From the NCBI RefSeq assembly GCF_003334785.1, contig NZ_QOWV01000010.1: a stretch of DNA of 64,000 bases; one strand, written 5' to 3'. Below, in pieces: positions 22,779 to 30,183 of this stretch. The DNA is from Escherichia coli (GTDB lineage: Bacteria; Pseudomonadota; Gammaproteobacteria; Enterobacterales; Enterobacteriaceae). The notes beneath the pieces were generated by a model, which was given only the letters and a program-made list of their open reading frames with translations, ran no database searches and was not told the origin of the DNA. Each line of letters opens with the position of its first letter. Within the stretch, counting starts at the first letter, position 1. Made by a program: the position numbers and the translations under genes.

Positions 22779-23684
22779 ATGCGTCGAACGTTTATCAAAA
22801 AAGAAGGCGTCGTCATCACGACGCTGGCCCGTTATTTGTTGGGTGAAAAGTGCGGTAATCGATTGAAAACCATAGATGAGCTGGCAAATGAATGCCGTTC
22901 ATCCGTTGGCCTGACGCAGGCCGCGTTGAAAACGCTGGAATCAAGCGGAGCGATACGGATTGAACGCCGTGGGCGCAATGGCAGTTATCTGGTCGAGATG
23001 GATAACAAAGCATTGCTGACTCATGTGGATATCAACAACGTGGTATGTGCAATGCCCTTGCCCTATACCCGTTTGTACGAAGGCCTGGCGAGCGGATTGA
23101 AAGCCCAGTTTGATGGCATTCCTTTTTACTATGCGCACATGCGTGGCGCGGATATTCGCGTGGAGTGTCTGCTTAATGGCGTGTATGACATGGCGGTGGT
23201 TTCGCGACTAGCGGCGGAAAGTTATCTCACGCAAAAAGGCTTATGCCTCGCGCTGGAGTTGGGGCCGCACACCTACGTTGGCGAGCACCAGTTGATTTGC
23301 CGTAAAGGCGAGTCCGCAAACGTGAAGCGCGTGGGGCTGGATAACCGTTCGGCGGATCAGAAAATCATGACCGATGTTTTTTTTGGCGGTAGTGATGTGG
23401 AACGAGTCGATCTCTCTTATCACGAGAGTTTACAACGCATTGTTAAAGGCGATGTCGATGCGGTGATCTGGAACGTGGTGGCGGAAAACGAACTGACCAT
23501 GCTGGGATTAGAGGCGACGCCGCTCACAGACGATCCGCGATTTTTACAGGCCACCGAAGCCGTGGTCCTGACGCGAGTCGATGATTACCCAATGCAACAA
23601 CTGCTGCGTGCCGTTGTAGATAAACACGCCCTGCTCGCCCATCAACAACGGGTAGTGAGTGGGGAACAGGAACCGAGTTATTAA
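22779..23684 (+). CDS. yhfZ: Putative transcriptional regulator YhfZ
   Basis: 301-aa ORF; first gene of the tightly packed yhf cluster downstream of trpS. Confidence 0.85.
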   Translation: MRRTFIKKEGVVITTLARYLLGEKCGNRLKTIDELANECRSSVGLTQAALKTLESSGAIRIERRGRNGSYLVEMDNKALLTHVDINNVVCAMPLPYTRLYEGLASGLKAQFDGIPFYYAHMRGADIRVECLLNGVYDMAVVSRLAAESYLTQKGLCLALELGPHTYVGEHQLICRKGESANVKRVGLDNRSADQKIMTDVFFGGSDVERVDLSYHESLQRIVKGDVDAVIWNVVAENELTMLGLEATPLTDDPRFLQATEAVVLTRVDDYPMQQLLRAVVDKHALLAHQQRVVSGEQEPSY

Positions 23685-23700
23685 ACGAAAGGCATCTGAT

Positions 23701-24063
23701 ATGGAAACCAGACTCAACCTGCTTTGCGAGGCAGGCGTTATTGATAAGGACATCTGCAAAGGCATGATGCAGGTCGTCAACGTACTGGAAACAGAGTGCC
23801 ATCTGCCGGTGCGCAGTGAGCAAGGAACGATGGCGATGACACATATGGCGAGTGCACTGATGCGCAGTCGCCGTGGTGAAGAAATAGAGCCGCTGGATAA
23901 CGAGTTGCTGGCAGAACTGGCGCAATCCAGCCACTGGCAAGCCGTTGTGCAATTGCATCAGGTGTTGTTGAAGGAATTCGCACTGGAAGTTAACCCGTGT
24001 GAAGAAGGCTATTTGCTGGCCAACCTTTATGGATTATGGATGGCTGCTAACGAAGAGGTTTGA
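23701..24063 (+). CDS. yhfY: Small conserved protein YhfY
   Basis: Start set at METRLNLLCEAGV (120 aa); the track ORF 23659.. is an upstream extension that overlaps yhfZ. Confidence 0.8.
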   Translation: METRLNLLCEAGVIDKDICKGMMQVVNVLETECHLPVRSEQGTMAMTHMASALMRSRRGEEIEPLDNELLAELAQSSHWQAVVQLHQVLLKEFALEVNPCEEGYLLANLYGLWMAANEEV

Positions 24064-24141
24064 AGCTCCCGACAAATCCACGTCGCACAACCTAAATATT
24101 CAAAAAAATGAATATTTAAGGAACAGAAACGAGGCAACAAG

Positions 24142-27770: not shown

Positions 27771-27781
27771 AAGGCACGACT

Positions 27782-29086
27782 ATGGATCTGTATATTCAGA
27801 TTATCGTGGTGGCGTGCCTGACGGGTATGACATCGCTTCTGGCGCATCGCTCGGCGGCTGTTTTTCATGACGGCATCCGCCCGATCCTGCCGCAACTGAT
27901 TGAAGGCTATATGAACCGTCGCGAGGCGGGGAGTATCGCTTTTGGTCTGAGCATTGGTTTTGTGGCCTCGGTGGGGATCTCTTTTACCCTGAAAACCGGG
28001 CTGCTCAACGCATGGTTACTCTTTCTTCCTACCGATATCCTCGGCGTCCTGGCGATAAACAGCCTGATGGCGTTTGGTCTTGGCGCTATCTGGGGCGTGT
28101 TGATCCTTACTTGCCTGTTGCCAGTAAACCAGCTGCTGACCGCGCTGCCGGTGGATGTATTAGGTAGCCTGGGGGAATTAAGCTCGCCGGTGGTTTCAGC
28201 TTTTGCACTGTTCCCGCTGGTGGCGATTTTCTACCAGTTTGGCTGGAAGCAAAGTCTGATCGCCGCCGTGGTGGTACTGATGACCCGTGTGGTAGTCGTG
28301 CGCTATTTCCCACATCTTAACCCTGAATCCATCGAAATCTTTATTGGCATGGTGATGCTGCTGGGGATCGCGATAACTCACGACCTGCGTCATCGTGATG
28401 AAAATGACATTGATGCCAGCGGGCTTTCGGTGTTTGAAGAACGCACGTCACGGATTATCAAAAACTTACCCTATATCGCCATCGTGGGAGCATTGATTGC
28501 CGCCGTTGCCAGCATGAAGATTTTTGCTGGCAGTGAAGTGTCGATCTTCACACTGGAGAAAGCATATTCCGCAGGCGTAACGCCGGAACAATCGCAAACG
28601 CTGATTAATCAGGCGGCTCTGGCAGAATTTATGCGCGGACTGGGGTTTGTGCCGTTGATTGCCACCACCGCGTTAGCAACGGGTGTGTATGCAGTTGCGG
28701 GCTTTACCTTTGTTTATGCGGTGGGCTATCTCTCGCCGAATCCGATGGTTGCAGCGGTATTAGGCGCAGTGGTTATTTCGGCGGAAGTCTTGCTGCTTCG
28801 TTCGATCGGCAAATGGCTGGGACGCTACCCGTCGGTGCGTAATGCGTCGGATAACATCCGTAACGCCATGAATATGCTGATGGAAGTGGCGCTGCTGGTC
28901 GGTTCGATTTTCGCAGCAATTAAGATGGCGGGTTATACCGGATTCTCTATCGCGGTTGCCATTTACTTCCTCAACGAATCCCTGGGCCGTCCGGTACAGA
29001 AAATGGCGGCACCGGTCGTGGCAGTAATGATCACCGGTATTCTGCTGAATGTTCTTTACTGGCTTGGCCTGTTCGTTCCGGCTTAA
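27782..29086 (+). CDS. yhfT: Inner-membrane protein YhfT (putative transporter)
   Basis: 434-aa polytopic membrane protein. Confidence 0.85.
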   Translation: MDLYIQIIVVACLTGMTSLLAHRSAAVFHDGIRPILPQLIEGYMNRREAGSIAFGLSIGFVASVGISFTLKTGLLNAWLLFLPTDILGVLAINSLMAFGLGAIWGVLILTCLLPVNQLLTALPVDVLGSLGELSSPVVSAFALFPLVAIFYQFGWKQSLIAAVVVLMTRVVVVRYFPHLNPESIEIFIGMVMLLGIAITHDLRHRDENDIDASGLSVFEERTSRIIKNLPYIAIVGALIAAVASMKIFAGSEVSIFTLEKAYSAGVTPEQSQTLINQAALAEFMRGLGFVPLIATTALATGVYAVAGFTFVYAVGYLSPNPMVAAVLGAVVISAEVLLLRSIGKWLGRYPSVRNASDNIRNAMNMLMEVALLVGSIFAAIKMAGYTGFSIAVAIYFLNESLGRPVQKMAAPVVAVMITGILLNVLYWLGLFVPA

Positions 29087-29097
29087 GGAAGGCACCT

Positions 29098-30183
29098 ATG
29101 AAGACGTTTCCTCTGCAAAGCCTGACGATTATTGAGGCGCAGCAAAAGCAGTTTGCGCTGGTGGATAGCATTTGTCGCCATTTCCCCGGCAGCGAGTTTC
29201 TTACTGGCGGTGATTTAGGCTTAACGCCAGGACTGAATCAACCGCGCGTTACCCAGCGTGTGGAACAGGTGCTGGCTGATGCATTTCACGCACAGGCTGC
29301 GGCGCTGGTGCAGGGCGCGGGGACTGGCGCGATTCGCGCCGGGCTGGCGGCTTTGCTCAAACCGGGGCAGCGTCTTCTGGTGCATGACGCGCCTGTTTAC
29401 CCGACGACACGGGTTATTATTGAGCAGATGGGGCTGACGCTTATTACTGTTGATTTCAATGACCTGTCGGCACTGAAGCAGGTCGTCGACGAGCAACAAC
29501 CGGATGCGGCGCTGGTGCAGCATACGCGCCAGCAGCCGCAGGACAGCTACGTGCTGGCAGATGTGCTGGCAACGTTGCGCGCGGCAGGTGTTCCAGCGTT
29601 AACCGATGACAACTATGCGGTGATGAAGGTGGCTCGAATCGGCTGTGAATGCGGCGCGAATGTCTCGACATTTTCCTGCTTCAAGCTATTTGGGCCAGAG
29701 GGTGTTGGTGCAGTGGTCGGCGATGCTGATGTTATCAACCGTATTCGCGCCACGCTTTACTCCGGCGGTAGCCAGATCCAGGGCGCACAGGCGCTGGAAG
29801 TATTGCGTGGTCTGGTGTTTGCGCCAGTGATGCACGCGGTGCAGGCAGGGGTATCTGAACGGTTGCTGGCTTTGCTTAACGGTGGTGCGGTGCCGGAAGT
29901 GAAAAGCGCGGTGATTGCTAATGCGCAGTCGAAGGTGTTGATTGTCGAGTTTCATCAGCCGATTGCCGCCAGAGTGCTGGAAGAGGCGCAAAAGCGCGGT
30001 GCCTTGCCTTACCCGGTGGGTGCAGAGTCGAAATATGAAATCCCGCCGCTCTTTTATCGCCTTTCCGGAACGTTTCGCCAGGCGAATCCACAATCAGAAC
30101 ATTGTGCGATTCGCATTAACCCGAATCGCAGCGGTGAAGAGACGGTGCTGCGGATTTTGCGTGAGAGTATTGCCAGTATTTAA
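29098..30183 (+). CDS. yhfS: Putative PLP-dependent enzyme YhfS
   Basis: 361-aa ORF; last gene of the yhf cluster, convergent with frlR. Confidence 0.85.
   Translation: MKTFPLQSLTIIEAQQKQFALVDSICRHFPGSEFLTGGDLGLTPGLNQPRVTQRVEQVLADAFHAQAAALVQGAGTGAIRAGLAALLKPGQRLLVHDAPVYPTTRVIIEQMGLTLITVDFNDLSALKQVVDEQQPDAALVQHTRQQPQDSYVLADVLATLRAAGVPALTDDNYAVMKVARIGCECGANVSTFSCFKLFGPEGVGAVVGDADVINRIRATLYSGGSQIQGAQALEVLRGLVFAPVMHAVQAGVSERLLALLNGGAVPEVKSAVIANAQSKVLIVEFHQPIAARVLEEAQKRGALPYPVGAESKYEIPPLFYRLSGTFRQANPQSEHCAIRINPNRSGEETVLRILRESIASI

Follow-up and report, generated by a model that had tools for sequence, protein, structure and literature searches.

The yhf gene cluster of Escherichia coli is probably a catabolic operon with a non-canonical uptake module linked to the phosphotransferase system

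Among described systems, the phosphoenolpyruvate:carbohydrate phosphotransferase system (PTS), the D-glucosaminate operon of Salmonella, the EF_0829-EF_0839/AHA_3910-3917 cluster and certain phosphotriesterase-family lactonases come closest to the yhf cluster of Escherichia coli, a run of eight genes (yhfZ to yhfS) at positions 22,779 to 30,183 of the 64,000-nucleotide stretch of DNA that we analysed (the window; NCBI RefSeq assembly GCF_003334785.1, contig NZ_QOWV01000010.1). The likeness to the PTS is that homologous clusters contain general PTS genes and that the yhf cluster encodes a histidine protein, a cysteine-containing α/β protein and a polytopic membrane protein, with no kinase; however, YhfY, YhfU and YhfT belong to no known EIIA, EIIB or EIIC family, and the cysteine of YhfU follows the third strand of an RpiB-type fold. 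The Salmonella operon dgaABCDEF, reportedly described by Miller et al. in 2013, is said to encode a mannose-type PTS, the pyridoxal 5'-phosphate (PLP)-dependent ammonia-lyase DgaE and the 2-keto-3-deoxy-6-phosphogluconate (KDPG) aldolase DgaF. The parallel with yhf would be that an amino-sugar acid is taken up by a PTS, that a PLP enzyme deaminates its 6-phosphate and that aldol cleavage follows, and one yhf-like locus (L097) has a KDPG aldolase gene coupled to its cluster. Differences lie in the permease and in the PLP enzymes (YhfX is of fold-type III and YhfS is not SelA-like), and yhf has in addition a lactonase-type hydrolase and a phosphomutase, while its E. coli version contains no aldolase.

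The EF_0829-EF_0839/AHA_3910-3917 cluster (TIGR03577-TIGR03583), which is likewise uncharacterised, brings together a PRD protein and a small Cys/Gly-rich protein with membrane proteins and two enzymes, one PLP-dependent and the other an amidohydrolase. YhfY matches the EF_0829 PRD model TIGR03582 with an E-value of 1.6e-6, and two DUF2620 members, i.e. relatives of YhfU, weakly match the EF_0830 model TIGR03577 (E 0.002-0.009). Both fall well below the membership cutoffs (28.4 against 69.35 for YhfY, 16-18 against 141 for the DUF2620 members), and the membrane and enzyme components come from different families, so that YhfY and DUF2620 may be regarded, at best, as distant homologues of these proteins. 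The phospho-sugar lactonases of the phosphotriesterase family (Lmo2620, Bh0225 and mycoplasma enzymes), which lie in PTS-associated clusters, share with Php the fold and the binuclear metal centre.

For 80 loci and for metagenomic contigs, we located the counterparts of the eight E. coli proteins; presence counts refer to the 58 loci in which at least 5.6 kb of flanking sequence is available on either side. A scan with a YhfT alignment, using one genome per species, found YhfT relatives in 189 of 100,044 species. A block of composition Z-(Y)-U-T-Php-(S)-X-W, where the letters stand for the Yhf proteins, recurs with varying gene order in Enterobacterales, Vibrionaceae, a Sebaldella metagenome-assembled genome (MAG), Clostridia and Bacilli, and also in more distant contigs, including a high-G+C clade, in which YhfT is just 25-38% identical. 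YhfU, YhfT and YhfX are present in all 58 loci, Php and YhfZ are missing only from two Vibrionaceae loci, YhfW is found in 51 loci (several Yersinia species lack it), and YhfS is found in 28, in none of those from Vibrionaceae and not in several others. Clustering of the neighbouring open reading frames over diverse loci yielded no further universal partner and no kinase. The yhf genes are therefore one functional unit, with a core of YhfZ, YhfY, YhfU, YhfT, Php, YhfX and YhfW and with YhfS as an optional member. This bears out the view of an earlier note on the window, made from its sequence alone, that the genes work together: given a block conserved across phyla, the alternative that they are separately transcribed and unrelated in function fails as far as function is concerned.

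The Yersinia loci lacking yhfW are those of Y. ruckeri (L046), Y. frederiksenii (L048), Y. proxima (L050), Y. artesiana (L052), Y. massiliensis (L053), Y. alsatica (L056) and Y. vastinensis (L057). All keep YhfZ, YhfY, YhfX, Php, YhfU and YhfT, and the gap between yhfX and php is too short to hold yhfW. The gene is present in Y. nurmii (L047) and in Ewingella (L055).

General PTS genes are embedded in several of the homologous clusters. In a Clostridiales MAG (L078), the yhfW homologue is overlapped at its end by ptsI; an HPr gene comes after yhfW in three Firmicutes, one of them Caproiciproducens (L082, L084, L085); and in L095, L097 and a JGI contig, the genes for YhfX, HPr and Enzyme I (EI) are co-directional, with 4-nt overlaps in L097. 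YhfY matches the Pfam PRD domain (PF00874) with an E-value of 9e-4 over 83 residues, which is weak but consistent with the precomputed PF00874 annotation of its homologues, and its motif TH..A..R (His48 in E. coli) is kept in at least 80% of the 39 sequences of the family alignment; profile match and conserved phosphorylatable-type histidine are thus both present. In YhfU, the motif G-x-C-x-[ST]-G-x-G around Cys52 is invariant in both alignments, even among members that are 27-40% identical. The top structural matches of this protein are RpiB enzymes, whose Cys-x-[ST]-Gly loop it keeps, and Cys52 occupies what we take to be the position of the RpiB catalytic cysteine. The match of YhfU (117 residues) to Pfam LacAB_rpiB is itself weak (E 0.16), and, as we read the alignment, the protein has neither the Asp-His motif of the RpiB N terminus nor the phosphate-binding helices of the RpiB C terminus. 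In one high-G+C clade, the two proteins are fused, a YhfU-type half preceding a YhfY-type half (hhalign probability 98.4% for the former, BLASTP 3e-9 for the latter); the DUF2620-PRD fusion recurs in six 90% clusters, in two of which both Pfam domains are precomputed. Taken together, the embedded EI and HPr genes, the PRD motif of YhfY, the cysteine of YhfU and the fusion of the two proteins indicate that the yhf system is connected to the PTS.

This connection was missing from the earlier note, as were the RpiB-like fold of YhfU and the optional status of YhfS; the note had called YhfY a small protein but did not see that it is a PRD domain, and it assigned YhfU to no family. In Vibrio and Photobacterium (L059, L068, L069, L076, L077), a cellobiose/chitobiose-type PTS set lies within a few kilobases of the yhf-like cluster. 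It comprises an EIIC, two small EIIB- and EIIA-like proteins and a 296-residue protein without a family match, the EIIC alone being backed by Pfam annotation, on the related locus L005.

The third member of the presumed uptake module, YhfT, has no detectable relative among solved structures, and we found no fold evidence of an EIIC in it and no match to a known EIIC family. The yhfU and yhfT homologues are always adjacent across loci. In one MAG (L003:9586-11341 and L004:2322-4077), a DUF2620-YhfT pair is found on its own, flanked by mnmE and a recN-like gene, with no regulator, PRD protein or enzymes nearby.

For the remaining proteins, domain and profile searches confirmed the family memberships that had been read from the sequence. 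YhfZ scores 373 bits against its own NCBIfam equivalog model, NF041241 (cutoff 260), and the structure of its ligand-binding domain is solved (PDB 2OZZ). YhfX has an Ala_racemase_N domain (PF01168, E 6.6e-22) with an invariant lysine, K61, at the position of the PLP-binding residue, and its nearest solved relatives by profile comparison with the PDB are, with weak E-values, alanine racemases and D-threonine/D-3-hydroxyaspartate aldolases. YhfS is closest to methionine γ-lyase, YnbB-type proteins and cysteine desulfurases, so that eliminating lyases of the Cys/Met family are among its nearest solved relatives; K196 and D170 are invariant, and it matches TIGR03576, a model related to the Dga-type PLP ammonia-lyase, with an E-value of 0.001. 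PLP enzymes of the YhfX and YhfS type need a primary amine beside a carboxylate or carbonyl. YhfW is not a member of the DeoB family, scoring 145.8 bits against TIGR01696 (cutoff 341.2) and 183.9 against NF003766 (cutoff 256), and the sole model that it passes, NF009049 (Table 1), is built on YhfW itself. Stretches around its catalytic core align well with the Bacillus cereus phosphopentomutase and presumably carry the metal ligands and the threonine nucleophile of that enzyme; unlike DeoB, YhfW has a divergent substrate-selecting cap domain and no link to nucleoside catabolism genes. Php is homologous to, and not a member of, the phospho-furanose lactonase family NF045706 (102.4 bits against a cutoff of 630). 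As for possible intermediates, YhfW itself and the relatives of Php suggest phosphates of sugars and phosphorylated lactones.

The genes that adjoin the cluster in other lineages offer clues to its substrate. In four Bacilli, a nagB gene scoring above the curated cutoff lies directly downstream. In L097, and there only, eda, encoding a KDPG/KHG (4-hydroxy-2-oxoglutarate) aldolase (174 bits, cutoff 156), is translationally coupled after the EI gene; nearby are genes for a NagB-II-like SIS protein, a cupin-type hexose-phosphate isomerase, a YhfS homologue, sugar dehydrogenases and a sugar ABC transporter whose sugar-binding protein is closest to furanose and ribose binders. L095 has a glucose-1-dehydrogenase-like member of the short-chain dehydrogenase/reductase family beside YhfT and Php. 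This pattern resembles the Salmonella D-glucosaminate route and makes a 2-amino-2-deoxy-aldonic acid, its lactone or another compound closely derived from an amino sugar a plausible substrate. Full-text literature searches on the genes, their families and related enzymes turned up no study of a substrate or regulon, the matches on yhf names being genome lists, screens and same-named B. subtilis genes; the statement that no substrate has been assigned is thus upheld. So is the catabolic look of the cluster, which encodes four enzymes besides a regulator and an uptake module.

Two control regions carry palindromes with the core TTCA-N6-TGAA. There are four such sites in the window, and three of them lie before yhfZ (22733-22746 and 22757-22770, within O1 and O2 of Table 1) and in the yhfY-yhfX gap (24099-24112, within O3). 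The half-sites of O1 and O2 stay at -46 and -22 from the yhfZ start codon while their spacers vary (Escherichia, Citrobacter, Klebsiella, Trabulsiella, Buttiauxella, Cedecea and others), O3 (26 bp; TAAATATTCA-A6-TGA(A/T)TATTTA) is conserved from Escherichia through Yersinia and Ewingella amid diverged flanks, and a Vibrio locus has a comparable palindrome immediately upstream of yhfZ. From these observations, we infer that the three palindromes are YhfZ operators, which would serve autoregulation and an internal yhfX promoter. A scan for σ70 promoters gave no convincing match at either control region, and promoter placement is accordingly a reading of the sequence only. A terminator scan of the 78-nt yhfY-yhfX gap found none; an RNA element or attenuator in this gap or in the leader was considered and discarded, the Rfam searches returning only sub-threshold REP-derived matches outside the gap (REP, repetitive extragenic palindromic). 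A reading of the palindromes as ARG boxes was likewise set aside by eye, as the orientation and spacing of the half-sites do not fit and flanking half-sites are absent. The weak CRP-like site upstream is not significant by count in the window; we retain it as a lead because its position is conserved, TGTGA-N6-TC being found ~90 nt before the yhfZ start codon in many genera of Enterobacteriaceae. In Pluralibacter gergoviae (L044), a yhfY homologue lies upstream of yhfZ, yhfS is absent, and the palindrome before yhfX is kept with a different spacer.

We hypothesize, tentatively and with somewhat less than even confidence, that the cluster encodes a YhfZ-repressed, PTS-linked pathway for a phosphorylated α-amino compound derived from an amino sugar. 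YhfZ, a helix-turn-helix protein with a ligand domain, would most likely repress two promoters through TTCA-N6-TGAA sites, two before yhfZ and one before yhfX. The membrane protein YhfT, the cysteine protein YhfU and the PRD histidine protein YhfY would form an uptake module driven or gated by the general PTS proteins, with a phosphoryl path that may run from phosphoenolpyruvate through Enzyme I and HPr to the YhfY histidine and on to the YhfU cysteine. The substrate would then enter in phosphorylated form, which would explain the lack of a kinase in the cluster. It is probably an amino-sugar derivative with an α-amino-acid function, most likely a 2-amino-2-deoxy-aldonic acid or its lactone (glucosaminate-like). 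Php would open a phosphorylated lactone or ester, YhfW would shift the phosphate, and YhfX, with or without YhfS, would carry out PLP chemistry at the amino-bearing carbon, i.e. epimerisation and/or deaminating elimination. The expected products are a 2-keto-3-deoxy-phospho-aldonate or an amino-sugar 6-phosphate, and the last steps would fall to housekeeping enzymes whose genes lie outside the cluster in E. coli (Eda/DgoA, NagB). A more specific proposal, which we consider possible but hold at a low level of confidence, is that YhfY-YhfU-YhfT is an unrecognised type of PTS permease, with the PRD as histidine carrier, the RpiB-fold protein as cysteine carrier and YhfT as translocator, supplying a new pathway by which E. 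coli and ~190 other species would catabolise an amino-sugar acid or lactone. The earlier suggestion of a phosphorylated amino-sugar or Amadori-type compound survives in its first half, which fits the nagB, eda, HPr and EI context; its second half does not, the kinase and deglycase being absent.

Several observations weigh against this hypothesis. In E. coli, genes for EI, HPr or a canonical EIIA, EIIB or EIIC are absent from the cluster, and YhfY is a PRD domain and does not belong to a known EIIA family; to our knowledge, PRD domains are regulatory targets of phosphorylation and not carriers to a sugar. Neighbouring nagB, eda and dehydrogenase genes are confined to few lineages and indicate two different exits. 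The role of YhfW in an amino-aldonate route is not obvious and is the weakest link, and some Yersinia dispense with YhfW and many species with YhfS. In a few loci, amidase-like and dipeptide-epimerase-like neighbours hint at amide or peptide substrates for some of the systems, and family members may therefore differ in substrate.

A doubtful but serious alternative keeps the catabolic operon and makes YhfT an ordinary secondary transporter, with YhfY and YhfU as a split PRD-containing regulator of purely regulatory function. The PTS would then phosphorylate the PRD histidine and the EIIB-like cysteine to tune YhfZ or the transporter (catabolite control or inducer sensing), and the substrate would be phosphorylated elsewhere or arrive already phosphorylated. 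This agrees with the classically regulatory nature of PRD domains, with the position of yhfY beside yhfZ in Enterobacterales and Vibrionaceae, with the fusion of a PRD to a cysteine-containing α/β domain, as in MtlR/LicR-type regulators, and with the lack of EIIC features in YhfT. Against it stand a yhfU-yhfT pair that is kept together even where yhfZ, yhfY and the enzymes are missing, and the absence of a conserved kinase though YhfW and Php point to phosphorylated intermediates; dedicated EI and HPr genes translationally coupled to enzymes suggest a stoichiometric supply of phosphoryl groups rather than a signal. A pathway of the pentose or nucleoside type, with YhfW as a true phosphopentomutase and YhfU as a small RpiB-like sugar-phosphate isomerase, seems to us unlikely. 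Here the substrate would be a pentofuranosyl-amino acid compound or an amino-pentose, and Php would act on an intermediate resembling pentono-1,4-lactone-5-phosphate. The well-aligned core of YhfW, the retained Cys-x-Thr-Gly loop and RpiB matches of YhfU, the activity of Php relatives on furanose-type lactone 5-phosphates (by the NCBIfam name and from Lmo2620) and the furanose/ribose-type binding protein of L097 would all suit such a pathway; yet YhfU lacks the RpiB motifs named above and is tied to the membrane protein rather than to the enzymes, several Yersinia without YhfW keep the rest, and the nagB and KDPG aldolase neighbours point to products at the hexose level.

Two further substrate classes take the amino acid moiety as their starting point. 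D-amino-acid esters or amides of sugars or polyols (cell-wall debris, D-alanylated teichoic-acid units), or peptide-like compounds, are a still less likely choice: Php would split the ester or amide bond, the D-amino acid set free would be racemised by YhfX and deaminated by YhfS, and the sugar or polyol phosphate would fall to YhfW. The kinship of YhfX with alanine racemases, the esterases and lactonases of the Php family, the amidase-like genes beside or fused to YhfT homologues and the L-Ala-D/L-Glu-epimerase-like gene that adjoins a yhfU-yhfT pair speak for it. Such neighbours are rare, however, we found no specific evidence for a substrate of this kind, and the EI/HPr, eda and nagB links fit a sugar-derived backbone more easily. 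Very improbable, finally, is an Amadori or glycated-amino-acid pathway related to the frlABCDR operon, which adjoins the cluster in E. coli and catabolises a compound of sugar and amino acid. The substrate class would overlap, and distant clusters use GntR/UTRA regulators, the type of FrlR. But frl works with a kinase and a deglycase, neither FrlD- nor FrlB-type enzymes occur in yhf, no enzyme family is common to the two, and PLP enzymes and a lactonase-type hydrolase have no place in known deglycase routes. The gph-trpS pair upstream is kept throughout Enterobacteriaceae while frl is found downstream in E. coli alone, being absent from those loci of other Escherichia and of Citrobacter, Klebsiella, Buttiauxella and Cedecea whose downstream flank is long enough; because the adjacency is limited to E. 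coli, we reject it as functional evidence, although it had been thought suggestive.

The window is a piece of E. coli chromosome, and many RefSeq genomes of this species match its region 22000-31000 with 100% identity. At least 80% of this region is held by 5059 of 5426 complete E. coli genomes (93%). The remaining 367 have less than 80% of it in one place, from which we regard the cluster as near-core and as lost or disrupted in some lineages. One locus listed as Escherichia coli strain SCPM-O-B-8794 (L014) encodes yhf proteins that are 91-97% identical to those of the window and has no frl downstream; it may belong to a different Escherichia lineage than its label states. The eight plus-strand open reading frames have coordinates identical to the RefSeq coding sequences yhfZ to yhfS (Table 1). 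The earlier note described them as one translationally coupled transcript with overlaps or gaps of at most 11 nt. This holds from yhfX to yhfS, where yhfX and yhfW overlap by 1 base, yhfW and php by 4 nt, and the gaps are 10 nt (php/yhfU), 11 nt (yhfU/yhfT) and 11 nt (yhfT/yhfS). It is wrong at two of the seven junctions, yhfZ/yhfY (16 nt) and yhfY/yhfX (78 nt), and the spacing is not uniformly tight: yhfZ and yhfY are split from yhfX to yhfS by the 78-nt gap that holds the conserved operator-like O3. In an operon list given in PMC4448311, php, yhfS, yhfT, yhfU, yhfW and yhfX form one unit in which yhfZ and yhfY are not included.

Table 1. Positions of the yhf genes, control elements and boundary features in the window (BIME, bacterial interspersed mosaic element)
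Feature	Position	Strand	Description	Basis
BIME (two inverted REP units)	~22517-22610		Left boundary, after trpS	Read directly; REP consensus matches 22523-22535 and 22540-22552
trpS intrinsic terminator	22636-22661	+	GC stem and T run	Terminator scan; 9-bp stem, then T run
CRP-like site	22688-22703	+	TGTGA-N6-TCGCC; weak, putative	Two mismatches to consensus
O1	22730-22749		Palindrome ATCTTCA-N6-TGAAGAT; putative YhfZ operator	~46 nt before yhfZ ATG
O2	22752-22775		Palindrome AAATATTCA-N6-TGAAAATTT; putative YhfZ operator	~22 nt before yhfZ ATG
yhfZ	22779-23684	+	Regulator, HTH_41 and YhfZ_C ligand-binding domain	NF041241, Pfam, PDB 2OZZ
yhfY	23701-24063	+	Stand-alone PRD domain, conserved His48	Pfam PRD; TIGR03582 below cutoff; family alignment
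O3	24093-24118		Palindrome TAAATATTCA-A6-TGAATATTTA; putative operator of internal yhfX promoter	yhfY-yhfX gap
yhfX	24142-25305	+	Fold-type III PLP enzyme, Ala_racemase_N and YhfX-like_C	PDB 4KBX
yhfW	25305-26531	+	Phosphopentomutase-like metalloenzyme, alkaline-phosphatase superfamily	NF009049, 742 bits
php	26528-27406	+	Binuclear-metal amidohydrolase, phosphotriesterase/lactonase family	PDB 1BF6, 4LEF
yhfU	27417-27770	+	DUF2620, RpiB-like fold	Invariant Cys52 in G-x-C-x-[ST]-G-x-G
yhfT	27782-29086	+	Polytopic membrane protein, presumed permease	PF10797; always adjoining yhfU
yhfS	29098-30183	+	Fold-type I PLP enzyme, Cys/Met-metabolism-like and YhfS-like_C; accessory member	PDB 4J8L
REP element	~30270-30335		Right boundary, before convergent frlR	REP consensus and Rfam scans

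REP and BIME elements often border E. coli transcription units. The cluster is indeed bracketed by them on both flanks, as had been pointed out, but this is ordinary for E. coli and carries no special meaning. The left BIME also gives a sub-threshold match to the REP-derived naRNA4 of Rfam. Between the yhfS stop codon and the REP element, a G-rich imperfect palindromic repeat, ggtcccctcgcccctttggggagagggttagggtgagggg, at ~30225-30262 looks like a member of another family of small intergenic repeats. Among neighbouring genes elsewhere, a truncated amidase-signature protein adjoins YhfT homologues in three loci (L006:6060-7004, L066:11347-12378 and L092:1410-2450), the first of which has two YhfT paralogues, and a YhfT-like protein of Clostridium citroniae (AFDB G5HJH7) carries a fused amidase domain. 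In L096, an enolase-superfamily gene (189-1202) lies directly upstream of a DUF2620-YhfT pair; its best models, all below cutoff, are muconate cycloisomerase, cis-3-hydroxy-L-proline dehydratase and L-Ala-D/L-Glu epimerase.

The yhf cluster is thus probably a catabolic operon with a non-canonical, PTS-linked uptake module. The genes themselves were already known, as the earlier note said, their families being known and three structures too; new here are the definition of core and accessory members across phyla, the operator motif, the fold and the cysteine of DUF2620, the fusion of YhfU- and YhfY-type proteins and the EI, HPr, eda and nagB genes located in homologous clusters. Php was crystallised in 1998, and YhfX, YhfS and the ligand domain of YhfZ have been solved as well, yet we found no substrate for the operon in the literature searched. 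The recognition of a single cross-phylum module, its apparent tie to the PTS and the KDPG aldolase and glucosamine-6-phosphate deaminase exits in some lineages narrow this question. If YhfY, YhfU and YhfT do constitute a new type of PTS permease, this would extend a textbook system and give roles to DUF2620, to YhfT and to stand-alone PRD proteins.

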